Source: an uncultured Christensenella sp.
GTDB lineage: Bacteria; Bacillota; Clostridia; Christensenellales; Borkfalkiaceae
DNA length: 64,000 nucleotides
Assembly: GCA_964435195.1 (NCBI GenBank)
Contig: CAYSYT010000003.1
Location: 554-64,553 of the forward strand
Direction of reading: 5' to 3'
This document shows positions 21,959 through 54,734 of the stretch, piece after piece. Under the pieces are notes generated by a model. That model worked only from the letters and a program-made list of their open reading frames with translations, did not search any database and had not been told where the DNA came from. Position 1 is the stretch's first letter, and each line of letters begins with the position of its first letter. The translations under genes and the position numbers were made by a program.

Positions 21959-24598
21959 TCAATTTTTAGTTTCTTCTATCAAATAACATTCGATAAAGTC
22001 GCCGACTTTAATATCGTTAAATCTTTCGATGGAAATACCGCATTCATAGCTTTGCGCGACTTCTTTTACGTCGTCTTTAAAGCGTTTAAGTTGCAAAACG
22101 TTGCCTTCGGTAATCATAACGTCGTCGCGATAAATACGAAGTTTGCCGTTGCGTACGATTTTACCGTCCGTTACGTAACAACCTGCAACCTGACCGACGC
22201 CGGAAATCTTAAACACTTCGCGAACTTCGGCTTTGCCGAGATATACTTCGGTAAATTTAGGTGCAAGCATACCTTTAAGCGCGTTTTGAACGTCTTCGAT
22301 AGCTTCGTAAATAACTCTGTAAAGTTTAACGTCTACGCCGCTTTTTTCCGCAATCTGTTTTGCGTTGGAATCGGGGCGTACGTTAAAGCCTATAATAATA
22401 GCCTTTGAAGATTCCGCAAGCATAATATCCGATTCTTTAATCGCGCCTGCCGCCGCGTGAATAACGCTAACTTTGACTTCTTCGTTAGAGAGTTTTTCCA
22501 ACGACTGTTTAACCGCTTCTACCGAACCCTGAACGTCCGCTTTAACGATAATATTAAGCGTTTTCATATCGCCTTCGGCAATCTTATTGAATACGTCGTC
22601 AAGCGTAACCATTTGCGACGCTTTAAGCATATTTTCTCTTTCTCTGTTCTTTCTTTCTTCCGCAACGAGTTTGGTCAACTTTTCGTGTTCTACCGCGTAA
22701 AGAATATCGCCCGCGTTAGGAACTTCGTCAAGGCCCATAATCGATACCGGCGTAGAAGGTCCTGCGGAGGTAACCTTTCTGCCCTTATCGTCGTTCATTG
22801 CTCTTATTTTACCCGTTACCGTTCCGACGACGACGCTGTCCGAAACTTTCAACGTGCCGTTTTGAACGAGAATAGTTGCGACGGGTCCTTTACCTTGGTC
22901 GAGTTTTGCTTCGATGACGACGCCCTTCGCCTTTCTGTTCGGGTTTGCTTTCAAATCTTTTATTTCTGCGAGAAGATTTACGTTTTCCAAAAGATTTTCC
23001 ATACCATCTCCGGTTTTCGCCGAAACGGGACAAACGATAACGTCTCCGCCCCATTCTTCGGGAAGCAATCCGTGTTCGGTAAGTTGCGTTTTAATTCTTT
23101 CGGTATTCGCTTCAGGTTTATCTATTTTATTCATTGCGACGATAATGGGAACGTCTGCCGCTTTCGCGTGGTTTATCGCTTCTACCGTTTGAGGCATTAT
23201 TCCGTCGTCGGCAGCGACGACCAAAATCGCTATATCCGTCGCCTGCGCGCCTCTCGCTCGCATAGCCGTAAACGCTGCGTGTCCGGGCGTATCGAGGAAG
23301 GTTATAACCTTTCCGCCGACGGAAACCTGATAAGCGCCTATATGTTGAGTAATACCGCCCGCCTCACCCGCGGTAACGTTGGTTTTTCTGATTCTGTCAA
23401 GTAACGAAGTTTTACCGTGGTCAACGTGTCCCATAACGGTAACTACGGGCGGACGACGAACGAGATTTGCTTGGTCGTCGACTTCGTTATCGAAACCTTC
23501 GCTCAAAACGTCTTCTGCGGTCTTATCGAGTTTAAGCTCCAATTCTACGCCTATATCCGCTGCGATAAACGCCGCCGTATCGAAATCGATGGAATCGTTA
23601 ATAGTTTTCATTATGCCTTCTTTAAAAAGGCGTTTGGTTATTTCCGCCGCGGTTATACCGATTTTTTCGGACAAAACTTTAAGCGGAATCATTTCGGTAG
23701 TCATTACCGCTTTTTCGATTTTAATAGCGGTATTTTCGGCTTTCTTTTCCTTTTTAACCGGACGGAATTTACGGTAACCGGTTTTATTTTCGTCGAAATC
23801 GTCTATATCGACTTGATTTTTAATAAGCGACCGTTTATTTACCGTGCGTTTTTCGTCGTAAGATTTTTCGTTCGTCTGTTTCTTTTTACCGAAACTTCTC
23901 TTATCGGCGGTAGGAACGATAGGCGGAGCAACGTACGTTTCGCGCGGTTTTTTCGCGCCGCCCGAAGAACCGTTGCCGCTACCCTTGTTAAACTGCGGTT
24001 TATCGGTACGGGTCTTGTTAAACCCGTTCTTATCTCTATTATAACCCTCTTTGTTGTAGCCCTCTTTCGCGCCCGTTCTCTGCGGACGGTCGTGAGATAT
24101 AGGTCCTTCCCTGCGAACTATAAACGAAGGTCTCGGCGCTTCTTTAACGACGTATTCTTTTCTTTCGGGCTCGACGGGTTTAACAGAAGGCTGCTGCGTT
24201 TCCGTCTTTTCGGATTTAACGGGTTCGTCAACCTTTTCGGAATTATTTTTTTCCTTCGGCTCTTCCGTTTTCGGAACGCCGTCTACCGACCGGCTCGACG
24301 TATCTTCCGCAACATTTACCACGGTTTTTTCTTCTACATCGGGAATTTTTTCGATTTTTTCCTCAACGGGTTCGGGCACGGGTGCGAAATCGGGTTCTGC
24401 AACCGGTACTGTTTTTATTTCAGAATCTTCTTTCTTTTCGTTAAAAAGCCTCGATTTTTCTTCAAGACGGTTTTTTACCGATTTAATACCCGAAACGTAT
24501 TCGTTTGCAGATTCTTTCAAACCTTCCAACTTGCCGCTTTCATAGAGGTCTCTTATTTTTTTCAAACTTTCGTTACGAATTTCTTTTTTATCAGCCAT
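21959..24598 (-). CDS. infB: translation initiation factor IF-2
   Basis: G-domain motifs [17 protein letters not shown] and NKID, with a low-complexity N-terminal region. The start is set at MADKK (ATG 24598) after a GGAG RBS. Confidence 0.96.
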
Positions 24599-24608
24599 TA
24601 AATTTCTC

Positions 24609-24923
24609 CTATCCTCTCTCGATAAAATCATTTTCCGCATTGTCGACTATTGCCGACGCAAGCCCTTTATCGGATATAGCCATAACTTTTGAATTCTCTC
24701 TGTGAGTAAATTCTTCTAATTTTCTGCCGTTGCTTTGCAATAGCGTGCAACCGAAACGTTTTGCTAATTTTTCGGCGTCTTTAAAAGTGTTTTCGCTTGC
24801 CGTTTCGCAAACGAGCACCAAATACGCTTTTTTAAGCGTAGCCACCGCGTTTAAGCCTATTTTATACTTTCCCGTACGCATTGCGAACCCTACGAAGGTT
24901 TCGGCTTTAGTTCTCTTTTCCAA
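24609..24923 (-). CDS. ylxQ: L7Ae-family RNA-binding protein YlxQ
   Basis: 104 aa; L7Ae/L30e-like, in the conserved nusA-infB position. Confidence 0.8.
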
Positions 24924-25173
24924 GGAAATCCGCCTCCAACGCCTCGTAAACGGCGTCGGGAACGTTACACTCGAAAGCGCGGTTTAACAATTTTTGTTTT
25001 TTTAATTTTGTCAAACACTCTTTATCCGTGCAGATATACGCGCCGCGTCCGTTTTGCTTACCCGTTACGTCGAGTTTAATTTCGTCTCCGAATTTTACTA
25101 TTCGCATCAGCTCGCGTTTGGGTTTAGAAGTTCTACACGCTATGCACGTACGCATAGGTACTTTTTTTTCCAT
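24907..25173 (-). CDS. ylxR: YlxR (DUF448) family RNA-binding protein
   Basis: 88 aa; PMRTCIACR motif. Located immediately after nusA. Confidence 0.85.
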   Translation of the reverse strand: MEKKVPMRTCIACRTSKPKRELMRIVKFGDEIKLDVTGKQNGRGAYICTDKECLTKLKKQKLLNRAFECNVPDAVYEALEADFLGKEN

Positions 25174-25193
25174 AATTCTCCTACCGAATAAAA

Positions 25194-26279
25194 TTATTCT
25201 TCGCTCGGCAATTCGTCCGAAATCACGCCTTCCTCATTCAAAGCGGCGCTTTCGCTTTTAACGTCTATCTTCCAACCGGTAAGACGTACTGCGAGCCTTG
25301 CGTTTTGACCGCTCCTTCCGATAGCAAGCGAAAGTTTATCGTCGGGAACGATAACCCTTGCGTTGTTTTCGCCTTCCAATTGAATAACTTTAATTACGCG
25401 TGCGGGCGAAAGCGCTTTCGCGATAAATTCAAGCGGGTCTTCGCTCCACGGAATTATATCTATCTTTTCTCCGCCGAGTTCGGCGACGATTGCGTTAACG
25501 CGCGCGCCCTTGTTACCTACGCATGCACCGAGAGCGTCGACCGCGGGGTCTTCGCTGTAAATAGCGATTTTCGTTCTCTGCCCGGGTTCTCTCGCAATGC
25601 CTTTAATAACGACTACACCCTGTCTGATTTCGGGTACTTCGTTTTCGAAAAGACGTTTAACCAAACCGTTTGCCGTTCTCGAAACGACTATTTGAGCGGC
25701 TTTGCCGGTATTCTTTACTCTCTTAACGTAAACGTTAAGTTTTTGATTAAGTTCGTATTTTTCACCGGGGACTTGGTCGTTGGGAAGCAACACGCCTTCT
25801 ATTTGATTTCCGCCGATTTCGACGTAAACGTTTCCGTCTTCTATGCGGCGTATGGTACAAGTCATAAGTTCGCCTTCTTTGTCTTCGAACTCGTTAACGG
25901 TGTTTTCGCGTTCTATTTCGCGAAGTTTTTGCATAACGACCTGTTTAGCCGTTTGCGCCGCTATTCTGCCGAAATCCTTGGTCGAAATTTCGTTTGCTAT
26001 AACGTCGCCGGCCTTGTATTTTTTACCGTTAACGCAAGCGTCTTCCACCGAAATTTCCTTATCGGGGTCGACGACCTCGTCAACGACGTTTTTCACACTG
26101 AAAATTCTGATACCTTTTTTTTCGGGCGAAAGCCTTACTTCTATACCGCTAACGTCTCCCGTGTGCTTTTTATACGCAATTGCAAGCGCGTCTTCCAAAG
26201 CGGAAATAAATTCCTCGCGGGAAATACCTTTTTCTCTTTCCAAAGCGTCAAGTGCCAAAAAGAAATCTTGATTTTGCAT
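25194..26279 (-). CDS. nusA: transcription termination/antitermination factor NusA
   Basis: 361 aa; N-terminal domain, S1 domain and two KH domains (GACVGNKGARV, AIGRSGQNARLA). Confidence 0.96.
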   Translation of the reverse strand: MQNQDFFLALDALEREKGISREEFISALEDALAIAYKKHTGDVSGIEVRLSPEKKGIRIFSVKNVVDEVVDPDKEISVEDACVNGKKYKAGDVIANEISTKDFGRIAAQTAKQVVMQKLREIERENTVNEFEDKEGELMTCTIRRIEDGNVYVEIGGNQIEGVLLPNDQVPGEKYELNQKLNVYVKRVKNTGKAAQIVVSRTANGLVKRLFENEVPEIRQGVVVIKGIAREPGQRTKIAIYSEDPAVDALGACVGNKGARVNAIVAELGGEKIDIIPWSEDPLEFIAKALSPARVIKVIQLEGENNARVIVPDDKLSLAIGRSGQNARLAVRLTGWKIDVKSESAALNEEGVISDELPSEE

Positions 26280-26337
26280 TATTTTTCTCCTCGTTAAACA
26301 AACGTTTTTATTTAATACGTTTTTAATTACATCCTAT

Positions 26338-26802
26338 TTATTCGAAGTCTATATACTCGTTCATTTTCACCACGTTTTTAAGTTCTATGGTAAAAGTGGT
26401 TTTGTCGTCGACCTTCAAAGTCACCGTTTTGCCGTCGTAAGCGGTTAAAATACCGTCGTAAAACTTTTTGCCCCTTACGGAAGAATAAAGTTTAACTTCT
26501 ACCCTTTCCCCTATATGCGACAAAAAATCTTTTTCCGTCTTGAAAGGACGGTCTATACCCAAACTCGAAACGTTAAGCGTATACGGTTGACCGAAAGTCG
26601 GGTCAAACTCGTCAAGCGGGTCGCTTATCGCGTTATGCAGCAAAGTGCAAGTATCCAAATCAACGCCGCCGTCTTTGTCTATAAAAATCGTAAGCGCGGG
26701 ATTTTTACCTTGCTTAAATTCCACTTCCGCCACCGTTATACCCAAATTATTCGCTATCGCGGAAACGAATTCGGTTATTTCTTCGTTAGATTTTACCTTC
26801 AT
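26338..26802 (-). CDS. rimP: ribosome maturation factor RimP
   Basis: 154 aa; RimP family, first gene of the nusA-infB operon. Confidence 0.92.
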   Translation of the reverse strand: MKVKSNEEITEFVSAIANNLGITVAEVEFKQGKNPALTIFIDKDGGVDLDTCTLLHNAISDPLDEFDPTFGQPYTLNVSSLGIDRPFKTEKDFLSHIGERVEVKLYSSVRGKKFYDGILTAYDGKTVTLKVDDKTTFTIELKNVVKMNEYIDFE

Positions 26803-26823
26803 AGTCCTTCCTCATAAAAAGAT

Positions 26824-26847
26824 ATGAGAACGGAAAACCGTTCTCAT
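26824..26847 (-). terminator. leader hairpin plus U-run upstream of rimP (candidate attenuator)
   Basis: Perfect 10-bp stem atgagaacgg/ccgttctcat with a 4-nt loop, followed on the minus strand by AUCUUUUUAU. It lies between the predicted promoter and the rimP RBS. Confidence 0.45.
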
Positions 26848-26876
26848 AAGTCAAGTGCATCGTAGTAACTATTATT

Positions 26877-26905
26877 ATATTAACATATTTAAGAGGCAAA
26901 AGCAA
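26877..26905 (-). promoter_or_regulatory. candidate promoter of the rimP-nusA-infB operon
   Basis: The minus strand reads TTGCTT, a 17-nt spacer, then TAATAT. Confidence 0.45.
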
Positions 26906-26931: not shown

Positions 26932-28461
26932 TCAGCCTTTTTTATTTTTTAAAATCATCAATTCTATAAACGCCTCCGCCGTTGCGTATGCGTCCGATAA
27001 CGCGCGATGATGATGAAAGGCTATGCCGAAGTGCTCCGCCACGGTATGTAAATCGTGCTTTTTCAAAAACGGCAAGTTGGCTCTTGCAAGTTCAACGGTA
27101 TCGATTATTTTGTTTTTCAACTCATATTCTTCCGCTCCTGCGAATCGTTTTATAAACTTGGTATCGAACTCGGCGTTATGCGCGACGATAATCGTACCTT
27201 CGATAAACTTCATAAAATCGGGAATAACGGAACTTATTTTAGGCGCGTCTTTTACCAACTCTTCGGTTATGCCCGTTAACTTTACGATTTCGTCCGTTAT
27301 AGGGTAATCCGGTTTTACGAGAGTGGTAAACTGTTCGGCTATTTTACCGTTTTTAATTTTCACCGCGCCTATTTCCGTTATGCCGTTATTCATAACGTCG
27401 AGTCCCGTAGTTTCCAAATCGAACACTACGTAATCGCAAGCGGTCAATTCTTCCGGCAATTCACTCTGCTCGTCGAAAACGCTCGCTATCTTAACCGTCG
27501 ATGCGGGCGAAGGAAATATCAGTCTGTATTCTTTCGGAGCGGTCTTTTTGAATTTGTCTTTCTTTACGAAGTCGTCGGGAAAAGTACAACGGTTTATCTT
27601 GCTAAACGTAAACGACCGTTTGCCGTTGTATTCGCCTATATTCCCGCGCGCGATAATCGCATCGCCGACCTGTAACTCTTTTATTTTTTGATAGGTATTC
27701 TTTTTTGAAAAATAAACTCCGCTCGTTCTTGCAGTGGTATCGTCCAAATGAATTATAAAAAAAGGTTTGCCGTTTTTGGTTTCTCTCTCGGCTATATCGG
27801 TTATCTTGCCGCAAACGACGACGTCGCCCGAAACGGCGTCCTCTAAATAAAGCGCCGTATCGCCTATGGAATAATCGTCTATAATCAAAGGGTTCTTAAC
27901 CTTTATCGTACGGTGTTCGATTTTTTGAAGTTCGCCTTCGTAAACGTCGTCGGATAAAAGGCTAACCGTTTCTTCCGCTTCTTTTATTTCCGTGCTTCCC
28001 GCAAAGTCCGAACAAAAAGTTCTCGCAAGAAAATCGTTCAACTTTGCCATAACGCCGTTTCTGTTCACGTATTCCACGCCGTCCGCCGTAAGACGCAACA
28101 CGTATTTAACAATATTTCCGTAAACGGAAGATATAACGTCGGTCGTTTTTAAAAAAATCGAAATAGACGGGTAATTTTTGTTTAAGTAATTATAAATTTC
28201 GTTATTTATCAACTGGTCGTTAGTAACTATTTTAACGACGGAAATTTCCACGCATCTGAAAACTGGCGCGGTTATTTTTTCGGCCTCGGCGAGAATTTTC
28301 GATTTCAAATCCTCGTTTACCGTTGCGTCGCATATAAAATTGTATTTCAACGACTTCGATTCACGGAATACTTCTACCGACGAAAGCCTTATGTTTTTAA
28401 GTCTGTCGTCGAGTCGTCGTACGTCGTTTATAAATTCTTCCGCCGTTTTTACCGTATACAT
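26932..28461 (-). CDS. PolC-like N-terminal/OB-fold/3'-5' exonuclease protein lacking the PHP and polymerase domains
   Basis: 509 aa. The C-terminal DEDDh exonuclease carries the motifs FDLETTGL, AHNAEFD and HRALSDA. It is preceded by a PolC-type OB fold (VVVCGKITDIAERETKNGKPFF...) and a PolC-like N-domain. The gene occupies the polC position upstream of rimP. Confidence 0.75.
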   Translation of the reverse strand: MYTVKTAEEFINDVRRLDDRLKNIRLSSVEVFRESKSLKYNFICDATVNEDLKSKILAEAEKITAPVFRCVEISVVKIVTNDQLINNEIYNYLNKNYPSISIFLKTTDVISSVYGNIVKYVLRLTADGVEYVNRNGVMAKLNDFLARTFCSDFAGSTEIKEAEETVSLLSDDVYEGELQKIEHRTIKVKNPLIIDDYSIGDTALYLEDAVSGDVVVCGKITDIAERETKNGKPFFIIHLDDTTARTSGVYFSKKNTYQKIKELQVGDAIIARGNIGEYNGKRSFTFSKINRCTFPDDFVKKDKFKKTAPKEYRLIFPSPASTVKIASVFDEQSELPEELTACDYVVFDLETTGLDVMNNGITEIGAVKIKNGKIAEQFTTLVKPDYPITDEIVKLTGITEELVKDAPKISSVIPDFMKFIEGTIIVAHNAEFDTKFIKRFAGAEEYELKNKIIDTVELARANLPFLKKHDLHTVAEHFGIAFHHHRALSDAYATAEAFIELMILKNKKG

Positions 28462-29489
28462 TGGTCAATCTCCTTGAAAAATTCCCGTTCAACGTCTTCT
28501 TTTTTAACCTTTCTTACGATTTTGCCTTTAACGAATATCGCGCAGCAATCTTTACCGCCCGCGATTCCCAAATCTGCGTCCGCCGCCTCGCCCGGACCGT
28601 TAACCACGCATCCCATAACCGCTATCTTAATCGGTTTTTTAACTCCCGAAAGATACCGTTCGACTTTTGACGCAAATTCCATACAGTTCCATTCACACCT
28701 GCCGCAAGTCGGACAGGCTATAATTTCCGCGCCTTCTTTTTTCAAACCGAGCGCGGAAAGAATGGCTTTACCCGCAACTATTTCCCTGACGGGCGGCGCG
28801 GAAAGACTTACACGCAGAGTATCGCCTATACCTTTGAGCAAAAGCGAACCTATACCTATACTGTTTTTCACGATACCGTTGTATTCCGTACCCGCTTCGG
28901 TAACCCCCAAATGTAGAGGATAATCGGTTTTTGCCGCTATGTATTCGTAGGCTTTTACGGTAAGCGGAACGGAAGAAGCTTTAACGGAAACGACGATGTT
29001 GTCTATGCCGTATTTTTCTAAAACGGCAACGCTTTTCAACGCGCTTTCGGCGAGAGAAATCTCGTTCTTTCCGTATTTTTCCAAAAATTCTTTTTCGACG
29101 CTTCCCGTATTAGAACCGACGCGAACGCATATTCCCGCTTCTTTAACCGCTTCCGCAACCCGTCTTATTTTATCTTCCGACCCGATGTTTCCGGGATTTA
29201 TTCTAACTTTATCCGCGCCGCCCTTTATAGACGCCAACGCAAGTTTATAGTCAAAATGAATATCTGCCACTATCGGCATTTTAGTATGTTTTTTTACCGT
29301 TGCGATAGAAAAAGCGTCTTCCTCGTCTAAAACCGAATATCTTAAAATATCGCAGCCCGCGTTTTCCAACTCTACCGCTTCTTTGACCGCTTCCGCCGTG
29401 TTTTTCAAACGGCAAGTAGACATAGACTGCAATTTAACGGATTCTCCGCCGCCGATAAAAATATTTCCTACTCTGACCCGTTTACTCAT
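28449..29489 (-). CDS. ispG: 4-hydroxy-3-methylbut-2-en-1-yl diphosphate synthase
   Basis: 346 aa; GcpE family with the C-terminal Fe-S cysteines CPTCGRC. Confidence 0.95.
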   Translation of the reverse strand: MSKRVRVGNIFIGGGESVKLQSMSTCRLKNTAEAVKEAVELENAGCDILRYSVLDEEDAFSIATVKKHTKMPIVADIHFDYKLALASIKGGADKVRINPGNIGSEDKIRRVAEAVKEAGICVRVGSNTGSVEKEFLEKYGKNEISLAESALKSVAVLEKYGIDNIVVSVKASSVPLTVKAYEYIAAKTDYPLHLGVTEAGTEYNGIVKNSIGIGSLLLKGIGDTLRVSLSAPPVREIVAGKAILSALGLKKEGAEIIACPTCGRCEWNCMEFASKVERYLSGVKKPIKIAVMGCVVNGPGEAADADLGIAGGKDCCAIFVKGKIVRKVKKEDVEREFFKEIDQCIR

Positions 29490-29559: not shown

Positions 29560-30459
29560 TTACCCGTTAAGCGCTCGCGTTTGATATAAATACACTATCT
29601 GCTGATAATAATCTTCGAGATAAAGCATCAATCTGTTTTCGTTAAGTATATCGTTATAAGCCGTTTTCGGCGACAAAGTATCGTAAAAACCGCAAACGCA
29701 ATCAAGCACGTCGTTATAATAACCGAGTTCCACCAATTCGTCTTTTGAAAGATTTTCGCTTCTGATACTTAAAAATTTCAATTCCAACGAAGCCTGCGCC
29801 TGTTTTACGGCGTTTCTGTATTTAAGTTCTTTTTCCTCTAAATTATTGTTGTATTTTATTATTTCGTTAGCACGGTCTTCGGCTTTTTCCTTCAATTCCA
29901 AATATTCAGATTGAATTTTCTGTTCTTTTATATCTTCGAAAATTTTTGCGGTTTCGTTTAACTTTTCCGTCAGTGCCGCTATTTCTTCCGTTAATACTTT
30001 TTTCTCCCGTCCGTAGTCAGCGTTAAGGTCGGCAATCTCTTTTGCGCGCGTTTTTTCTATCTCGGCTACTTTAACGAAATAAGCGTCGCTTTTTTCCTCC
30101 TGCCCGTTTACCGCGGCAACGTTAACCGAAACGATTGCGGCGCGGTATTTCTCTTCGACTTCGGAAACGGCAAGCTTTTCCGCGCTCTCCACGGCAATCA
30201 ATTTTGCTTGCAGTTCTTCGACGCTTTTTTTAATTTCGTCGGCATATTCGAGTTCGTTTTTTACGAGTTCGGCGTAAACGTTAAAACCCGCTCTTTCTTT
30301 CAATTCCGTTTCCGTCGGCATTTGTAATTCGAGCCGCGTCAAAGAAAGATTTTCCAAGGTTACGCCCTCGTAATACGTTCTTTTTATTCTGTAATACATA
30401 AAAATATCCGATAAAACGTCGAACATTTGCGTTTTAGTTACGGGGATGTCGAAATCCAT
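29560..30459 (-). CDS. hypothetical coiled-coil protein
   Basis: 299-aa ORF with a long E/K-rich heptad-like central region. It follows the 409-aa ORF after a 12-nt gap and an RBS. Confidence 0.6.
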   Translation of the reverse strand: MDFDIPVTKTQMFDVLSDIFMYYRIKRTYYEGVTLENLSLTRLELQMPTETELKERAGFNVYAELVKNELEYADEIKKSVEELQAKLIAVESAEKLAVSEVEEKYRAAIVSVNVAAVNGQEEKSDAYFVKVAEIEKTRAKEIADLNADYGREKKVLTEEIAALTEKLNETAKIFEDIKEQKIQSEYLELKEKAEDRANEIIKYNNNLEEKELKYRNAVKQAQASLELKFLSIRSENLSKDELVELGYYNDVLDCVCGFYDTLSPKTAYNDILNENRLMLYLEDYYQQIVYLYQTRALNG

Positions 30460-30471
30460 ATTTTCCTCCTT

Positions 30472-31701
30472 TTATACTCTTAAAGTATAAATAATTTTTT
30501 TAACTTTTTTCGCGTCGCCGCGCCCTTTTATCGCAACGGTAAAATATTCCGACCGCAAGTTCGGGTAAACTTTGCCCGAACGTGGAATTACGTACGTTTT
30601 TTTAATGCGCTCGGCGGTTATTTCCAACTCTACGGACACTTCGGATTTTACTTCTACCGAATACAAAACCTTATCTCCGTCAAAATTAAAATCCGTTTCT
30701 TTCTTGAAAACCTTCCATTCTCCGAAACCGTTCGATATTTTTTTGAATTCTCTTGTTTTTTTATCGAACGACACACCCGACGCAAAAATTTCAATACCTT
30801 CCGAGTTCAAAAAACTTTCTTCTTTTAAGGCAGTGTCGTAAACGTACAAAAACCGTCCGCCGAAAATTTTCATCGGCAAGGCGTAAACGCCGTTAACGAC
30901 ACACGACCCGCCGTCTATCGTAAAATCGCGCTCTTGCAAATTGCAATCGACGGCGGAAATTTTTTCGTTGAAAAATAGATACAACCGACCGTTTCCGACC
31001 AAATATACGCAATCCCCTGCAACGGCAATACTTCTTCCGTCCGACTTAAATGCAAATTTTAACGTATGTTTAAGCGTGACGTCGGTATCTGAATTACCTA
31101 CCGTAACTTTCAACACGCCGTATTCGGCAAAAACGTATAAGTTACCGCCGACTACGGTAAGTTTAAGCAATTTGCCGTAAGAAGAATTTACTATCAAATA
31201 CGTATCGGTTACGCAATCCGCCGTAGGCGAAGTTCCGCCTTGCCGCGAATTGAAATAAATTTTATTTTCTTTAACGGCAAACGCTCTGCCCTTATAACGA
31301 ACGTACCCGTCGGAACATAACGTACTAAAAACGCAAACGTTTCCCCCTAACAAAGTAACCGTCGAATTTTCTCGGTTAACAATCGCCGTTACCGTTTTCC
31401 CTTTTTTTACCGCCGTAAAAACCTGCGGCGCAACGCCGTACCTTTCAAATGAAATTTTAGAAACGCCGTTTTCTCCGCACTCGTATAAATAACCGTCGTC
31501 GCAAAAAATCAATTTACGCCCGTCGACTTCGTAAACTTCAACGGGATTATAACCGCTCGGAATAAAAACGTTCTCTCCCGAAAACGTTACGCCCTTGCCA
31601 CTTTCCGTTATTCCTTCGCAATAATCCACGTTATTCAAAAGCGAACAGGCTGTTTTTTTCCGATTGGAAGAAACTTCCGCCGCGCTTTTTATAAACCTCA
31701 T
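30472..31701 (-). CDS. hypothetical protein with beta-propeller-like repeats
   Basis: 409-aa ORF with repeated G-x-x-hydrophobic-Y-hydrophobic-F/V blades (GNLYVFAEYG, GRLYLFFN, GRFLYVYD). Its start overlaps the upstream ORF's stop (ATGA). Confidence 0.6.
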   Translation of the reverse strand: MRFIKSAAEVSSNRKKTACSLLNNVDYCEGITESGKGVTFSGENVFIPSGYNPVEVYEVDGRKLIFCDDGYLYECGENGVSKISFERYGVAPQVFTAVKKGKTVTAIVNRENSTVTLLGGNVCVFSTLCSDGYVRYKGRAFAVKENKIYFNSRQGGTSPTADCVTDTYLIVNSSYGKLLKLTVVGGNLYVFAEYGVLKVTVGNSDTDVTLKHTLKFAFKSDGRSIAVAGDCVYLVGNGRLYLFFNEKISAVDCNLQERDFTIDGGSCVVNGVYALPMKIFGGRFLYVYDTALKEESFLNSEGIEIFASGVSFDKKTREFKKISNGFGEWKVFKKETDFNFDGDKVLYSVEVKSEVSVELEITAERIKKTYVIPRSGKVYPNLRSEYFTVAIKGRGDAKKVKKIIYTLRV

Positions 31702-32252
31702 ACAAAACTCCTTTCTTTAATCTTTATATTCTTCGGCGAACAAATTTCCGCTATTCCGTCGGTATATTTTTTATGAAAAATCACGGCGTCGTCAAACGCT
31801 CTCTCCGTCAAACAGTATTCCGCGCACGTACCGTATGCGATAACGCGCGTCGGTACGGAAGTTTCGGAATATCCGACGGTATCGTCCGTTCCGTAATTGC
31901 AAGGCACGTATTCGTATTCTACCGTAACGCAAGGTTCTTTAACCGATAAATATTCGGTATGTTTTTCAAAACGCACATCCTTTCCGTTTAAGCCCGTAAC
32001 ACGGCGTATTTTACGCAAAACCTCCTTAAATTCGGAATAATAAATTCTGCCGTTTTTCGTATTAACGGTTTCGCATATCACCATAGGCACGTACGTACAA
32101 GCAAGTTCGTTAAGCACTACGTTCGCGCAACGGGTCATAACGTTTACCTGATAAAGCGTTTGAGTATCGCCGTCGCCCGTTTGTAAATAATCGACGACGT
32201 TTTCTCTACCTAAAAGAATAGCCGTTAATCTAATAATATTCTTAATCGTCAT
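31698..32252 (-). CDS. hypothetical protein (possibly phage-derived)
   Basis: The start is set at MTIKN (ATG 32252) after an AAGGAG RBS. I recognised no family. Confidence 0.55.
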   Translation of the reverse strand: MTIKNIIRLTAILLGRENVVDYLQTGDGDTQTLYQVNVMTRCANVVLNELACTYVPMVICETVNTKNGRIYYSEFKEVLRKIRRVTGLNGKDVRFEKHTEYLSVKEPCVTVEYEYVPCNYGTDDTVGYSETSVPTRVIAYGTCAEYCLTERAFDDAVIFHKKYTDGIAEICSPKNIKIKERSFV

Positions 32253-32271
32253 AAAACTCTCCTTTTTAAAT

Positions 32272-32306
32272 ATGCCGAGCCAAAAGGCTCGGCATAACTT
32301 TTTTTT
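32272..32306. terminator. 10-bp GC-rich hairpin with A/T runs on both sides
   Basis: Stem atgccgagcc, loop aaaa, stem ggctcggcat. The T-run follows on the plus strand and an A-run precedes on the minus strand. Confidence 0.4.
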
Positions 32307-32442
32307 ACGAAAACACAAAAATTCTAACTATTATTTTATTCCGCTTATCATACCTTGACCGATAGGTCTTGCGCAAATAAGGTCGGCGTATTTTACGAGC
32401 GTTGCCGTATAAACGGGTTTCCCCGCGACTTGTCTTAATATC

Positions 32443-33306
32443 TTACCGTCTTCGCCTTCCAACCAACGGTTCTATCACGTGCGCGTTTTCGTCGAATTCC
32501 GAATAAACCAACCCCGTACTGCTTTTAAACCTGCCGTAGCGCCTGCTTTCTATTTGGTCGGCGGATAAACTTTTAGTAAGATTTTCCGTTTCGACGGCAT
32601 CGAGAAAGGGATTGTCCGCCCATTCCATAAATTCGCACCAAACGTCGGGCGAATTCGAAAGGTTAAGAAAGATTTTTTCGTAAATAAACGTCAAGCCTTT
32701 TAAAGGCGTCATCGTTCCGAAAATATCACCTTTCCTGTCTAAAATTCTCATACGGCACTCGTCGTAGATATCTTCCGGCGGTTCTTCGTCGAACCATACG
32801 AAATCGAGCGAACTCCCCTGAAACTTTTCTCTGCCTTGGTCACAAGACTTAAACCCTATAACCGAAATACCGCCGAAAACGTTTTTAACTCTTATTTGGT
32901 CGATAACGCCTCTTCTCGGGCACTCTTTTTTGCCGGACAGCATAGTTACGTCTTCAATCCATTCGGGATTAAGATAATCCAAAATCTTGTTTTGAGCGAC
33001 GTCCCTTTGAACCTGCGTCGACAACGAAACCACCCACCCGAAAACGTTTGCTTTGTTTTTTCTGTAAGGATGAATTCCCCTCGCCATATAAACCGTTTCG
33101 ACTGCCCCGCATTCCGTTTTACCGCTTCTGTTTCCGCCGAAAACCCACCTGTTCTTTTTGTCGCATTTGTGAAACTCCAACTGCTTCAAATGAATTTTAT
33201 CGCCGACGTTATATTTTAATAAGCGATTATTCTTTTCGCGGCGCGCCTGTTCTTTTTCTATTTCTTTAATTTTCATTATCACTTCACGCATATTTGACAA
33301 ACTCAC
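32443..33306 (-). pseudogene. phage terminase large subunit, N-terminal ATPase domain only (truncated)
   Basis: Walker A GGNRSGKT and Walker B LDFVWFDE. The ORF ends after 287 aa with an unrelated RRRR tail. There is no nuclease domain, and no terS or portal gene is adjacent. Confidence 0.7.
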
Positions 33307-39074: not shown

Positions 39075-39776
39075 TTAATCGGAATACGCGCTGTCCTTAC
39101 CCGTTTCGGGAACTAACCCCGCAATATTAAATTCCTCTTCAACGTCAAAGTTTTCGGCGTTTTCGTATGCGGCGAGTTTACTTATCGAAACTTCGTAAGC
39201 CGTCATAACTTTTATATCGTCGTCGGAATATCTTTTTTGATATTCTCTGCTCTGTATTCTGCCCGCCAAAGCGATTTTTTCGCCGACGGCAAGATTTTTT
39301 GCGAATCTTGCATTTCTTCCCCAAGCGATACACGGTATATAATCGGATTTATTGTAAGAGCGGTTAACCGCAATCAATATATCGGCTATTTCCCTGTTAA
39401 AAGGGGTGGTTCTGTATATAGGCGGTTTGCAAATATACCCCGATAGCACTATACTGTTAGGATTTTTCACAATCGCGGTATCTAAAAGTTCTCTGACGAA
39501 TACGGTCAACATCAATTTGCTTTTTCCGTCGACTAATTTGTTGTAACTTCTAAACTGTCCCAAAGCGTTGATAACCGACCCCACTTTAAGGTCCTTGTCG
39601 GCAATAAGCCGTTCGGAAACGGTTACGGGTAATACGTCGCCCTGTCCCGAAAGTCTGCGAACCAAAACGTTCATTTCGTAAAATCCTTCGCCGTACACTT
39701 CGTGCGAAAATTCCGCGTCGGAAAGGATTTCCCCGCTGATAAAAACCTTATTGTTTTTCTCCGTTAAATTGTTCAT
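39075..39776 (-). CDS. SSB-family protein with two OB-fold-like halves
   Basis: Pattern FSHEVYGEGFYE...LPVTVSERL, then NSIVLSGYICKPPIYRTTPFNREIADILIAVNRSYNKSDYIPCIAWGRNA...GRIQSREYQK. The start is set at ATG 39776, 8 nt after a GGAGG. Confidence 0.55.
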   Translation of the reverse strand: MNNLTEKNNKVFISGEILSDAEFSHEVYGEGFYEMNVLVRRLSGQGDVLPVTVSERLIADKDLKVGSVINALGQFRSYNKLVDGKSKLMLTVFVRELLDTAIVKNPNSIVLSGYICKPPIYRTTPFNREIADILIAVNRSYNKSDYIPCIAWGRNARFAKNLAVGEKIALAGRIQSREYQKRYSDDDIKVMTAYEVSISKLAAYENAENFDVEEEFNIAGLVPETGKDSAYSD

Positions 39777-39798
39777 ATATATTTCCTCCAAAGATTTT

Positions 39799-44788: not shown

Positions 44789-46389
44789 TAAAAGGGGAAA
44801 AGTTTTTCCCCTTTTATCGGTTAGTTTTATACTGTCGGTCCGCAAACGAAATCCGTTATATAGAACGTCGTTTTACCTCTGCCGCCTAATCTTATCGAAT
44901 TGTTTGAAGTTCCCTGTCCGTAATAACGTACGGTAACCCAACCCGAGCCTTCGTAACCTTCGGTAAGTTCCTCTCCGTTCATAAAGAATTTAATCGATTC
45001 GCTTTGATTTGTAATATGCGTAGTATTGTTTATATACACGTTCGTAAGTCCCGAACCGTTTTTGGGCATTATACAGAAATCTATATCTTGTAGTGCAGTG
45101 CTGTATACCTTGAATTCGAGATACTCGTAATTACCTATCGTTCCGCCGTTTCTGAGTCCTAATGCGTAATTACCGCCTGTCGAACTTGTATAATACTGCC
45201 ATACGTTGCTTCTGCCTTCGTATTCCCCCACGTAATCCAATACTACCGAACCGTCTCTCGGATTTCCGTTTACTTCAAGAAGCAAAGTGCTTGATTTTCT
45301 CTCGCCTGCGTTAAACACTATATCGTAAGCGTTGTAATAATATACGTCGAGCGTGAGCGTACCGTCGGCTAAAACCGTACCCTTATAAGCGTCCGCCTTG
45401 CCAGAGGGATATACGTTCGAATTATTTCCGCCGAACCACCTATCCGCATAACCGCGACCGTAATCGGTAACACTGCTTCCCGCTACGCCTTTTTTAACGA
45501 CCGTCTCGCGAATTGTATAAGCCGACGGGTTACTTGCCGTTCTTACGTAATGGTTTACCGTATACGTGGTATCGAAGAAGTTGTCTTCTTCCGCAAAATA
45601 CGGTATTCCGTCCGTTCCCGTCTTAAACAACTCGGTATCGAGTCCGCTAAACGCCATATCGGTATCGCTTTGTAAATAAGTAATTACGTTACCCGTATAC
45701 GTTTGCGCGTTTTCGCTTCCGAATACTCCGAGCGACAATCCGCCCATTCTCTTATCCGTACTCATCACCACGTAAACGTTTTCATACGTATTTACAAGCC
45801 CTGCTGCCGAACTTCCGTGTCCGCTTGCCGCGTTAAATCCTACCAACGCTCCGCTGTCTATCACGTTATTTGCTCTTCGAGTCGAAAAATCAACTACGAA
45901 AACACTGTTTTTCACGGTCGCGCCGTACGTCGTTCCCGCTATCATACCTACCGTATTTACGATGTTGTCGAATACGTATCCTCTTACGTAAACGTTTTCG
46001 ACCGTTCCCATAAGTTTTTTTGCAAGTATTCCGCCGCCCGTTATCGCCTCTTGATACAACACCGCATTGTAGAAGCCTACGTTCTTAACTACGCCGTCTT
46101 TACCTACCGTTCCGAACAATCCGTCGCCGTCGTAAATTCCGTTTGCTATTACGTACCCTCTTCCGTCGAACGTACCTTGGAAGCCGCGTGCGTTATCTCT
46201 GTAATACGCTTGTGCGGTCGTTAACGTATCGGGGGTTGCGCTTACTTTAGTGCTTGCCAAATCTATACTGTTACCGAGAACAAAATATCCGCCGTACGCG
46301 TCGGTATCGGCATCTCTTCCGCCCGCCAACGTTTGCAAACTTAACAATTCTTCAGCCGTGGTTATAACCTTCGTTATGAACAAGCCGTC
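44789..46389. repeat. direct repeat copy 1 (1601 nt)
   Basis: Covers the 3' 1563 nt of the 897-aa gene plus the terminator. It matched 47749-49348 at every position I compared, apart from a 1-nt T indel in the hairpin loop. Confidence 0.9.
44790..44815 (-). terminator. hairpin after the 897-aa gene (part of repeat copy 1)
   Basis: aaaagggga/tcccctttt stem. It is identical to the hairpin at 47750-47774 except for one extra T in the loop. Confidence 0.45.
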
Positions 46390-47520
46390 GGTTTCTATAA
46401 TATAGTCTTCGAATTCGATTTTAACGGTTTGATTGTCGTAAGGCTTGCCGTTTTCAAAAGCGGCGGTAACCGTACCCAAACTTAAAGTAACGTTACTTGC
46501 GACCACGCTTCCGACCTTAACCGACGGAGCGTTCGTTATTTCCGCTATTTCTTCGGCTGTAAGCCCCAAATCGTCGGCAAGAGAAAGCGTCATCGTGTTG
46601 TTTGAAAGGTCTACTTCTCCGAGAGAATTTGCTTGTTTTACGTCTTTATCGACACCGCTAACGATAACTTTACGAGCGTATTTACCCGTTTCGTCGGCGG
46701 TAACCGTATACGAAAGACCGTTTTCGAGTTGAACTTCCAACGCTTGAACGTCGTTAGTGAAACTTATTTCCAAAGTTGCGCCTTTTTTAGTAACCGTAAA
46801 ATTATCCTCAACGCTGTATTTGGAATTTTCGTTATAAACGAATTTCAAACTATCGTCAACGTCGTTAAGTCTTTTTACGATACCCGTTTTAGTTACGCTT
46901 ATCGCAGTGGTTTTTCCTACTACCTCGTTTACGCCTGCCAAAAGATTAGCGTCGTTCGTAGTATCTTCTTTATACGCTTTAAGCATAACGGTTGCGGCTG
47001 TTCTTTCGCTACCGCTTACGTTTTGAGTATAATAAGTAGTGCCGTCAACGGTTACGTAACCGCGGTAACTTATGCTTCTGTTATAACTTGCGGCAGGAAT
47101 ATCGTAAAGATAAACTACCGATTGCATAAAGTCGGTATCTTCGGTACATTCCGTCCATAAGTGAGTGGTAACGGTATCTCTTACCGTTTCGGTATTTTTT
47201 GTGAGTTCGCCGCCGCTCAAAACGTCTGTCGGAATGATTAAAGTACCCGTAGATACGCCGTCTTTAATATTGCCGTTGCCGTCTGTAAGTATTTGGTCGT
47301 ATACTTCCTTTTCCAATAAAACGAAGAATCTGATTCCTATCGGATTATTAGTTCTGACCGACGCACCGCCGTTTTTGTAATACGCCGAATCGTTAAAATC
47401 ATCTACGGAAGCGGTACGAACGTCTGCGCTTACGCCCATATAACCGAACGCAGCAAATAAACTTAATAAAAGTACGATAAATAATGTCGAAACTGAAAAT
47501 TTCTTAATCTTTGCCGTCAT
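44827..47520 (-). CDS. large secreted protein: variable N-terminal region plus a conserved GLUG/beta-helix-like and carbohydrate-binding-like C-terminal module
   Basis: 897 aa with a signal peptide. The motif GFQGTFDGRGYVIANG...GLFGTVG is typical of GLUG-type surface proteins. The C-terminal 520 aa are identical to those of the 1685-aa protein. Confidence 0.7.
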   Translation of the reverse strand: MTAKIKKFSVSTLFIVLLLSLFAAFGYMGVSADVRTASVDDFNDSAYYKNGGASVRTNNPIGIRFFVLLEKEVYDQILTDGNGNIKDGVSTGTLIIPTDVLSGGELTKNTETVRDTVTTHLWTECTEDTDFMQSVVYLYDIPAASYNRSISYRGYVTVDGTTYYTQNVSGSERTAATVMLKAYKEDTTNDANLLAGVNEVVGKTTAISVTKTGIVKRLNDVDDSLKFVYNENSKYSVEDNFTVTKKGATLEISFTNDVQALEVQLENGLSYTVTADETGKYARKVIVSGVDKDVKQANSLGEVDLSNNTMTLSLADDLGLTAEEIAEITNAPSVKVGSVVASNVTLSLGTVTAAFENGKPYDNQTVKIEFEDYIIETDGLFITKVITTAEELLSLQTLAGGRDADTDAYGGYFVLGNSIDLASTKVSATPDTLTTAQAYYRDNARGFQGTFDGRGYVIANGIYDGDGLFGTVGKDGVVKNVGFYNAVLYQEAITGGGILAKKLMGTVENVYVRGYVFDNIVNTVGMIAGTTYGATVKNSVFVVDFSTRRANNVIDSGALVGFNAASGHGSSAAGLVNTYENVYVVMSTDKRMGGLSLGVFGSENAQTYTGNVITYLQSDTDMAFSGLDTELFKTGTDGIPYFAEEDNFFDTTYTVNHYVRTASNPSAYTIRETVVKKGVAGSSVTDYGRGYADRWFGGNNSNVYPSGKADAYKGTVLADGTLTLDVYYYNAYDIVFNAGERKSSTLLLEVNGNPRDGSVVLDYVGEYEGRSNVWQYYTSSTGGNYALGLRNGGTIGNYEYLEFKVYSTALQDIDFCIMPKNGSGLTNVYINNTTHITNQSESIKFFMNGEELTEGYEGSGWVTVRYYGQGTSNNSIRLGGRGKTTFYITDFVCGPTV

Positions 47521-47666
47521 TATTCGTTACCTCCGAACCCCGTATAACCCTCGTCCCATTCGGGCGCCCATTGTGTTGCACCGTCGTTGCTTATCGTAAG
47601 AACTTCTTTCGTAACAAATTCGCTGTAATTAAGCCACGGTGTAACGTACTTGTTTTTTTCCTTCAT
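47520..47666 (-). CDS. small ORF (48 aa), translationally coupled to the 897-aa gene
   Basis: ATG at 47666 lies 7 nt after AAGGAGG. Translation: MKEKNKYVTPWLNYSEFVTKEVLTISNDGATQWAPEWDEGYTGFGGNE. Its TAA stop shares an A with the downstream ATG (TAATG). It is too short for the ORF track, whose shortest listed ORF is 60 aa. Confidence 0.5.
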   Translation of the reverse strand: MKEKNKYVTPWLNYSEFVTKEVLTISNDGATQWAPEWDEGYTGFGGNE

Positions 47667-47748
47667 AATTAACCTCCTTACTTTATCAAACCGCAAGCGG
47701 TTATTGATTTTAAAATTTCAATTAAGTCCGTAAGAAATTTAAAACCCG

Positions 47749-49348
47749 TAAAAGGGGAAAAGTTTTCCCCTTTTATCGGTTAGTTTTATACTGTCGGTCC
47801 GCAAACGAAATCCGTTATATAGAACGTCGTTTTACCTCTGCCGCCTAATCTTATCGAATTGTTTGAAGTTCCCTGTCCGTAATAACGTACGGTAACCCAA
47901 CCCGAGCCTTCGTAACCTTCGGTAAGTTCCTCTCCGTTCATAAAGAATTTAATCGATTCGCTTTGATTTGTAATATGCGTAGTATTGTTTATATACACGT
48001 TCGTAAGTCCCGAACCGTTTTTGGGCATTATACAGAAATCTATATCTTGTAGTGCAGTGCTGTATACCTTGAATTCGAGATACTCGTAATTACCTATCGT
48101 TCCGCCGTTTCTGAGTCCTAATGCGTAATTACCGCCTGTCGAACTTGTATAATACTGCCATACGTTGCTTCTGCCTTCGTATTCCCCCACGTAATCCAAT
48201 ACTACCGAACCGTCTCTCGGATTTCCGTTTACTTCAAGAAGCAAAGTGCTTGATTTTCTCTCGCCTGCGTTAAACACTATATCGTAAGCGTTGTAATAAT
48301 ATACGTCGAGCGTGAGCGTACCGTCGGCTAAAACCGTACCCTTATAAGCGTCCGCCTTGCCAGAGGGATATACGTTCGAATTATTTCCGCCGAACCACCT
48401 ATCCGCATAACCGCGACCGTAATCGGTAACACTGCTTCCCGCTACGCCTTTTTTAACGACCGTCTCGCGAATTGTATAAGCCGACGGGTTACTTGCCGTT
48501 CTTACGTAATGGTTTACCGTATACGTGGTATCGAAGAAGTTGTCTTCTTCCGCAAAATACGGTATTCCGTCCGTTCCCGTCTTAAACAACTCGGTATCGA
48601 GTCCGCTAAACGCCATATCGGTATCGCTTTGTAAATAAGTAATTACGTTACCCGTATACGTTTGCGCGTTTTCGCTTCCGAATACTCCGAGCGACAATCC
48701 GCCCATTCTCTTATCCGTACTCATCACCACGTAAACGTTTTCATACGTATTTACAAGCCCTGCTGCCGAACTTCCGTGTCCGCTTGCCGCGTTAAATCCT
48801 ACCAACGCTCCGCTGTCTATCACGTTATTTGCTCTTCGAGTCGAAAAATCAACTACGAAAACACTGTTTTTCACGGTCGCGCCGTACGTCGTTCCCGCTA
48901 TCATACCTACCGTATTTACGATGTTGTCGAATACGTATCCTCTTACGTAAACGTTTTCGACCGTTCCCATAAGTTTTTTTGCAAGTATTCCGCCGCCCGT
49001 TATCGCCTCTTGATACAACACCGCATTGTAGAAGCCTACGTTCTTAACTACGCCGTCTTTACCTACCGTTCCGAACAATCCGTCGCCGTCGTAAATTCCG
49101 TTTGCTATTACGTACCCTCTTCCGTCGAACGTACCTTGGAAGCCGCGTGCGTTATCTCTGTAATACGCTTGTGCGGTCGTTAACGTATCGGGGGTTGCGC
49201 TTACTTTAGTGCTTGCCAAATCTATACTGTTACCGAGAACAAAATATCCGCCGTACGCGTCGGTATCGGCATCTCTTCCGCCCGCCAACGTTTGCAAACT
49301 TAACAATTCTTCAGCCGTGGTTATAACCTTCGTTATGAACAAGCCGTC
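47749..49348. repeat. direct repeat copy 2 (1600 nt)
   Basis: Covers the 3' end of the 1685-aa gene plus the terminator. The offset to copy 1 is 2959 nt over most of the repeat and 2960 nt on the low-coordinate side of the 1-nt loop indel. Confidence 0.9.
47750..47774 (-). terminator. hairpin after the 1685-aa gene (part of repeat copy 2)
   Basis: Same stem as 44790-44815. Confidence 0.45.
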
Positions 49349-52816: not shown

Positions 52817-52869
52817 TTTTTTCTCCTTTATGCAACCATACAAAAAGTTAATTCATTTAACGAATAATA

Positions 52870-54720: not shown

Positions 54721-54734
54721 TTTCGTTCACCCCT

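Follow-up and report, generated by a model that had tools for sequence, protein, structure and literature searches.

We analysed a 64,000-nucleotide stretch of DNA (the window; contig CAYSYT010000003.1, positions 554 to 64,553 of the forward strand) from an uncultured Christensenella sp. of the Borkfalkiaceae, in which the place of polC, the gene for the replicative polymerase PolC, is taken by a much shorter gene. This gene was called as an open reading frame (ORF) of 509 amino acids (aa) with an ATG start at 26932..28461 on the minus strand. Its start shares 13 nt (28449..28461) with the stop end of ispG, an overlap that is identical in most related loci, and 129 bp separate its stop codon from rimP. 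In metagenomes of other Clostridia, 57 PolCs (full or cut by the contig end; full ones 1400-1630 aa) are encoded directly after ispG and before rimP-nusA, which confirms this position as the canonical polC slot. An earlier note, made from the sequence alone, had placed a 509-aa ORF overlapping ispG by 13 nt in that slot, in agreement with both the coordinates and the 57 PolCs. The features of the locus, all on the minus strand, are as follows.

28449..29489, minus strand: ispG (gcpE), the upstream gene (Pfam GcpE in orthologous loci).
26932..28461, minus strand: the whole gene, with PolC-derived N-domain, OB fold and exonuclease and without a polymerase (ORF; family of 500-550 aa proteins).
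27967..28461, minus strand: N-terminal domain, residues 1-165, two tandem alpha/beta (KH-like) subdomains (hhalign, AlphaFold2 model).
27877..27966, minus strand: connector between N-domain and OB fold, residues 166-195, poorly conserved (model confidence, conservation).
27583..27876, minus strand: OB fold of the PolC type, residues 196-293 (PF01336; profile matches to 3f2b and 9qpc).
27433..27582, minus strand: conserved linker of 50 residues between OB fold and exonuclease, residues 294-343, in place of the N-terminal half of the PolC PHP domain (profile gap, alignment).
27511..27528, minus strand: Y-x-x-[VI]-x-P motif, here YRLIFP, residues 312-317 (Y in 130 and P in all of 132 representatives).
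27475..27489, minus strand: position of a clamp-binding-type pentapeptide, residues 325-329, here IASVF (family alignment).
26935..27432, minus strand: DEDDh 3'-5' exonuclease, residues 344-509, up to the end of the protein (PF00929, TIGR00573, 2p1j).
26823..26848, minus strand: 11-bp hairpin followed by a T run, between the stop of the 509-aa ORF and the start of rimP (consensus scan and sequence).
21959..26802, minus strand: rimP-nusA-ylxR-L7Ae-infB block, downstream, which marks the canonical polC locus (ORFs; Pfam labels in orthologous loci).

All three domains of the short protein derive from PolC. Two Pfam families were matched: PF01336, an OB fold, at residues 214-286 with E 6.6e-10, and PF00929 (RNase_T) at residues 345-498 with E 2.7e-38 and 132.5 bits against a cut-off of 24. 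The top NCBIfam model was that of PolC (NF001688), which matched in two stretches with 188 bits, under its cut-off of 873; TIGR01405 likewise did not reach its cut-off (165.5 bits against 1043), the dnaq subfamily-domain model TIGR00573 was passed (119.7 bits against 71.5), and no equivalog NCBIfam model reached its cut-off with the 509-aa protein. The best sequence match in PDB was the exonuclease of Thermotoga maritima PolC (2p1j, 9.7e-35), and a full PolC was also among the nearest. A family profile built from 132 diverse representatives (alignment A1) was collinear with PolC 9qpc, positions 20-297 aligning with 53-345 and 342-505 with 440-604, so that residues 346-439 of 9qpc, the N-terminal half of PHP, were skipped; the same profile matched the OB fold of Geobacillus PolC 3f2b at 4e-8. 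The AlphaFold2 model of the 509-aa protein had a mean predicted local distance difference test score (pLDDT) of 94.4, and its top Foldseek match was again PolC 9qpc (384 columns, E 2e-19). Low model confidence in the connector was restricted to about residues 165-180 (pLDDT below 50 at residues 165-173; means of 10-residue blocks 55-56 over 161-180 and 94 at 181-190), and residues 166-195 formed the segment with the lowest column conservation (0.21). The five catalytic residues of motifs ExoI-III (D348, E350, D433, H485 and D490) were invariant both in the 132 representatives and in a set of 55 sequences.

The N-domain was compared by hhalign with a PolC N-terminal profile of 48 sequences, namely 41 full metagenomic PolCs, six from Table S1 of Timinskas et al. 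and the PolC P0201, and aligned over 140 collinear columns with a probability of 96.1% (P 3.6e-9; reversed control 0.3%). Pfam matches of this domain were scattered and weak, the family most often matched, PF14480, being found in three of 46 members (best E 1.2e-3). In the model, its fold is a tandem alpha-beta repeat resembling BON domains, secretion-ring domains and the KH repeats of NusA. The N-domain alone did not match the PolC N-domain in PDB either by sequence or by fold, probably because 9qpc models just 1213 of 1474 residues. The strings that the earlier note had quoted (VVVCGKITDIAERETKNGKPFFIIHLDDTT, FDLETTGL, AHNAEFD and HHHRALSDA) are all present in the translation, and its assignment of a PolC-like N-terminal domain, a PolC OB fold and an intact DEDDh exonuclease is borne out by the hhalign result, by PF01336 together with the profile match to 3f2b, and by PF00929 together with the invariant catalytic residues, respectively. 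The N-terminal 300 aa, whose dissimilarity to PolC would have told against that note, thus resemble PolC both in the profile and in the hhalign comparison.

The rest of PolC is missing. No PHP or polymerase Pfam family matched the 509-aa protein even at E <= 1, PF07733, PF17657 and PF14579 gave no match, and the protein ends 11 residues past the last Pfam exonuclease position. When the PolC core, the PHP N-terminal half and DnaE1 N-termini were used in tblastn searches, no PHP or polymerase remnant came to light in the window itself or across related loci totalling about 1.4 Mb, polymerase-core hits being confined to an unrelated control locus. Among the window ORFs of more than about 570 aa, Pfam revealed no polymerase gene, and in 68 related loci every ORF that reached 700 aa was infB, carB or a gene for a surface protein. 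Pfam, the profile gap at 346-439 and tblastn therefore all agree with the earlier statement that PHP, polymerase and HhH are absent and that the ORF ends cleanly. That note had also considered a split replicase; in its simple in-situ form this finds no support, as about 150 loci are free of polymerase-core genes within 10 kb of the short gene, and so is the 64-kb window. Four loci with an insertion between the short gene and rimP were inspected as candidates, and the inserted genes were unrelated ones and not a polymerase. A metagenome scan with the ExoI motif alone returned canonical PolCs of other lineages, none of them from a sample that also contained a short-form locus. An exonuclease-helicase of the DinG type was also rejected: there is no helicase Pfam match, the protein ends after the exonuclease, and the DinG models remained far below their cut-offs.

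In place of the skipped half of PHP, the family has a conserved linker in which P317 is invariant and Y312, Q325 and F329 are near-invariant. The family consensus at residues 325-329 is Q-x-[NSD]-[LMF]-F, and the pattern Q..[LMFIV][FLYW] was present at this position in 116 of 132 aligned members (QVDLF, QTNLF, QTSLF, QADMF, QVSLF and other variants). Judged against the motif column of Table S1 of Timinskas 2013, the variants, QADMF and QVSLF among them, have the form of textbook pentapeptides for binding the beta clamp. The pattern occurred within the 45 aa before ExoI in 113 of 128 family members and in none of 51 PolCs, while the reverse was seen in the last 15 aa, where 31 of 33 full-length PolCs and none of 128 family members carried it. 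From this distribution, the clamp motif lost with the PolC C-terminus appears to have been re-created beside the exonuclease. At residues 321-330 the mean pLDDT falls to 79, a dip that an exposed peptide would be expected to show.

The short form is widespread. Identical copies of the protein are present in an NCBI contig and two SRA assemblies made independently, and a scan in which each GTDB species was represented by one genome returned 68 loci with orthologues of 500-550 aa at 35-84% identity. The gene order ispG-[gene]-rimP-nusA-ylxR-L7Ae-infB was kept in nearly all of these 68 loci, the synteny of the block from rimP to infB extending over about 65 species. Among 1.84 billion cluster representatives, more than 130 clusters at 50% identity contained proteins of 500-550 aa that aligned end to end, down to 25% identity; several hundred 90%-identity clusters of about 500-550 aa were among the matches listed, on contigs of up to 1.18 Mb (JGI contig Ga0137308_100001). 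Near-complete genomes among the carriers include GCA_019119395.1 (DWXC01, Candidatus Borkfalkia stercoripullorum), GCA_013316055.1 (WSNM01), GCA_964018215.1 (CAXHON01), SVIP01 (SIG412), MGYG-HGUT-03503 and DPQQ01 (UBA11475). At every family locus with readable flanks, including those of the most divergent members, a short gene (X) lies in the polC slot, in orders such as dxr-rseP-ispG-X-rimP-nusA and rpsB-tsf-pyrH-frr-uppS-cdsA-dxr-rseP-ispG-X. The survey of relatives for proteins of about 500 aa at the polC locus that the earlier note had called for thus covered 68 GTDB species and many metagenome contigs and found them. Carriers came from the guts of human, chicken, ruminant and mouse and were named Candidatus Borkfalkia stercoripullorum or were metagenome-assembled genomes (MAGs) labelled "Borkfalkiaceae", "Christensenellaceae" or "Clostridia bacterium", names that place them in the NCBI order Christensenellales. 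Homology searches and cluster look-ups returned MAG names only and no cultured carrier, and a search of a phage database gave matches to the exonuclease domain only. IspG and NusA of some carriers (L088, L091, L092, L096) are only 40-49% identical to those of the window, and those of PolC-bearing Clostridia (L098-L163) are 44-52% identical to them; judging by these sequences, either the clade may be very deep or the short form may be present in more than one order.

Selection on the short gene is strong throughout. The ratio of nonsynonymous to synonymous substitution rates (dN/dS, Nei-Gojobori) in close pairs was about 0.02-0.16 across N-domain, OB fold, linker and exonuclease, with domain values of 0.03-0.12 for the N-domain, 0.03-0.16 for the OB fold and 0.015-0.08 for the exonuclease. 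Over 64 loci the median identity of the short protein was 65.5%, compared with 69% for IspG, 68.7% for RimP and 66% for YlxR. The protein is conserved as its housekeeping neighbours are, and every part of it is in use.

We propose, with a confidence somewhat better than even, that the protein is a free-standing, clamp-tethered proofreader that acts in trans for a DnaE-type polymerase. By its position the short gene would descend from polC, in a clade of uncultured gut and rumen Clostridia that is both large and old, and it would have been shaped by two clean in-frame losses, one of the PHP N-terminal half and one of everything beyond the exonuclease. The second would have taken the rest of PHP, palm, thumb, fingers, HhH and the C-terminal clamp-binding motif. 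The remaining N-domain, OB fold and DEDDh exonuclease are connected by a conserved linker that is new to the family and that in most members bears a clamp-binding-type Qxx[LM]F pentapeptide. This motif would tether the protein to the beta clamp at primer ends, the OB fold would bind DNA close to the primer end, and the exonuclease would cut out in trans nucleotides misincorporated by DnaE, so that the protein would serve the replisome as a separate 3'-5' proofreading subunit. The N-domain possibly holds it to the DnaE-type polymerase; in tau, domain V is the alpha-binding part. The PolC N-domain is described as a domain pair related to tau domain V (reference 18 of PMC3919608). We infer each of exonuclease activity on DNA, clamp binding and partnership with DnaE. 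The activity proposed has been demonstrated for Bacillus subtilis PolC, the exonuclease of which corrects errors of DnaE in trans within a complex of DnaE, PolC and template; polymerase-deficient PolC suffices for this (Paschalis et al. 2017, PMC5627055), and the short protein would be its counterpart in nature. The polymerase-deficient protein is an engineered, full-length point mutant from an organism with PolC and DnaE3, whereas in the short protein the polymerase is physically gone and the form is natural.

Compared with PolC itself (NF001688/TIGR01405; 3f2b, 9qpc), the short protein has homologous domains in unchanged order (N-domain, OB fold, DEDDh exonuclease), and its gene sits in the same slot between ispG and rimP-nusA. 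It differs in length (about 510 aa against about 1400-1630), in that PHP, palm/thumb/fingers, HhH and the C-terminal clamp motif are present in PolC only, and in the new 50-residue linker with its clamp-type motif that replaces the PHP N-terminal half; it cannot polymerise DNA. Epsilon (DnaQ) of Escherichia coli is likewise a free-standing DEDDh exonuclease, and the short protein passes the dnaq model. In epsilon a clamp-binding-type motif, QTSMAF, stands just after the exonuclease domain, whereas the motif of the short-protein family stands before it (IASVF in the protein of the window). The short protein moreover derives from PolC and not from proteobacterial dnaQ, adds the N-domain and OB fold, and is without the C-terminal peptide that binds the PHP of alpha. 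It is best read as a functional analogue of E. coli epsilon of independent origin. The reverse case is provided by the exonuclease-less PolCs of Clostridia and Negativicutes, for example that of Acidaminococcus (Timinskas et al. 2013), which show the same clean separation of exonuclease and polymerase at domain borders but have kept the polymerase and lost the exonuclease. The PolX-like proteins of Actinobacteria (PMC12926913) likewise stem from a polymerase gene of which the part with the exonuclease has been retained across a family; they differ in belonging to polymerase family X, in having a PHP nuclease fold and in coming from another phylum. The architecture of the short protein was not described in the literature searched, which included two systematic surveys of C-family polymerases (Timinskas 2013; 2026). 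The first of these required a polymerase domain and the second complete genomes, and these requirements made the family invisible to them.

We lean slightly toward loss of the PolC polymerase in the clade, with DnaE1 as the sole replicative polymerase. In favour of loss, the ancestral polC slot is always filled by the short gene at loci with readable flanks, and Firmicutes with DnaE1 only exist, one of them in the class Tissierellia (PMC12926913 supplement; PMC3919608); Gottschalkia acidurici is an example of such a DnaE1-only species. The full form of the proposal, that an order-level clade (Christensenellales outside Christensenella, including Borkfalkia) replicates without a PolC polymerase, with DnaE1 as sole replicase and the former polC as a clamp-tethered equivalent of epsilon, is put forward tentatively, at a little less than an even chance.

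Several observations weigh against this picture. The polymerase-core searches took in loci, that is, the 64-kb window and about 1.4 Mb, which leaves room for a PolC elsewhere in the genomes. The window shows very strong co-orientation of genes with replication, 48 of 52 gene-like ORFs and 92% of coding bases lying on the minus, G-rich strand, with a GC skew of the plus strand of -0.12 throughout; since strong gene-strand bias and GC skew are typical of PolC-containing genomes (PMC3814617), this counts for a PolC-containing genome. The DnaE1 of Clostridia as a rule already contains an active PHP proofreader (PMC12926913), so the need for an extra one is not obvious. In the subclade of the window the motif has I or V where the family has Q (IASVF, VKSVF), which makes clamp binding least certain for the protein of the window. 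Finally, the exonuclease-domain tree, on which we do not rely, backs a single origin weakly: its point estimate shows the family as one clade, with a bootstrap of 9/30.

The alternative that survives best, possible but clearly less probable than not in our judgement, is that a complete or exonuclease-less PolC is encoded elsewhere in these genomes and that an old duplicate at the ancestral locus lost its polymerase and was kept as an accessory or sub-functionalised proofreading module beside PolC and DnaE1. Besides the strand bias and skew, which are linked with PolC and DnaE genomes, this is favoured by the existence, in Clostridia and Negativicutes only, of exonuclease-less PolCs of the architecture NTD-OB-PHP-Pol3-HhH (e.g. 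Acidaminococcus), which would be the complementary half, by one Clostridium genome with two PolCs on record, and by cultured Christensenella minuta, which is in the 2026 survey and outside its nine DnaE1-only Firmicutes. However, at every family locus the polC slot is taken by the short gene, and a polymerase is absent within 10 kb; the exonuclease-less PolCs retain an N-domain and OB fold of their own and so make no simple complement; and the short proteins bear a clamp-type motif of their own, which would be expected if they bound the clamp independently. Moreover, no long protein with a closely similar module was among the best 150 representatives of 1.84 billion, which excludes a recent paralogue of a resident PolC. 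The sole long PolC match among these 150, P0201, was considered as a close relative and rejected, being a generic PolC with two tandem exonuclease domains. P0201 (L077 8001..12896; gut metagenome ERZ27283125) is a PolC of 1631 aa with DEDDh exonucleases at 401-560 and 594-752 inside PHP, encoded in an unusual cluster of dnaE (960 aa), a 266-aa gene, polC and dnaG.

It is improbable that the remnant has left replication to become a general 3'-5' exonuclease of DNA repair or RNA processing, its place by rimP-nusA-infB being merely inherited. Several members are named "3'-5' exoribonuclease" or "exonuclease domain-containing protein" at NCBI, DEDDh domains serve RNA too (RNase T and ERI1 were among the PDB matches), and the combination of OB fold and exonuclease recalls nucleases of the YhaM type (weak match to 9o7t). 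Yet the exonuclease is closest to the proofreading domains of PolC (2p1j, 9qpc), then to DnaQ and DinG, and not to RNases; the "exoribonuclease" name probably comes from a weak domain match (PF16473, 30.4 bits) and not from a curated family. In addition, the PolC N-domain and OB fold are kept under equally strong selection, and conservation of the clamp-type motif speaks for a place at the replication fork. An assembly error, a frameshifted polC or a decaying pseudogene is refuted, even though carriers are known from MAGs and metagenome assemblies only, by the identical sequence in independent assemblies, the several hundred 90% clusters listed with their uniform length of about 500-550 aa on contigs of up to 1.18 Mb, dN/dS values of 0.02-0.16 and a gap of just 129 bp to rimP without PHP or polymerase remnant; the assembly deletion against which the earlier note had cautioned is thus countered by a short form that is lineage-wide and under selection.

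Further features of the window were noted. The hairpin at 26823..26848 lies just 5' of the rimP ribosome-binding site and is preceded by a promoter-like site (26871..26899). By its sequence and position it may be the end of a transcription unit of ispG and the polC remnant, or a leader terminator of the rimP-nusA operon, an operon that NusA autoregulates in B. subtilis. Directly upstream of ispG, and in the same place in about 40 related species, lies a phage-type head module with genes for a large terminase, a small-terminase-like protein, a portal, a 145-aa protein, a major head protein and three unknown proteins. It is intact in a related locus (L004 807..8890), whereas in the window (29560..33306, minus strand) much of it has been lost: only 287 aa of the terminase are left, the genes for portal, 145-aa protein and capsid are missing, and no more than 125 bp lie between 32318 and 32443. 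The three unknown genes (206, 409 and 299 aa) remain and are fast-evolving (median identity 22-38%). The module could be a domesticated element like a gene transfer agent, or an old prophage remnant. One 596-aa member of the short-protein family (P0424, NCBI DAX96677.1; 90% cluster of P0335) has been deposited as "DNA polymerase III subunit alpha [Caudoviricetes sp.]"; this is probably a bacterial contig called viral because of the adjoining head module. Elsewhere on the minus strand, 39075..39791 encodes a 238-aa protein with a single-stranded-DNA-binding (SSB) domain only at residues 112-195, after an N-terminal extension of about 110 residues, and 44827..57701 encodes very large proteins (897, 1685, 616 and 988 aa) that match only Ig-like (Big_2) domains or DUF4838 and are probably cell-surface proteins.

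PolC is regarded as the hallmark of Bacillota and as their essential replicase, and it is an antibiotic target; here the polC locus of an abundant gut clade encodes no polymerase. The proofreading and scaffolding parts of PolC, namely N-domain, OB fold and exonuclease, are kept in this clade under strong selection apart from DNA synthesis, which offers a natural handle on the function of the PolC N-domain and on trans-proofreading of DnaE. Should a PolC be encoded elsewhere in these genomes, the family would clearly exemplify how the duplicate of a replicase gene can be pared down to a proofreader that is bound to the clamp and dedicated to this task. Should it be absent, the carriers would be a major exception among the gut bacteria of humans and animals to the rule that Clostridia have PolC and DnaE1, and inhibitors targeted at PolC would miss them. 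If replication by DnaE1 alone is true of the clade, it would represent a fourth replisome make-up beside DnaE1 only with DnaQ or PHP, PolC with DnaE1, and PolC with DnaE3, and a natural experiment on which parts of PolC are needed besides polymerisation.

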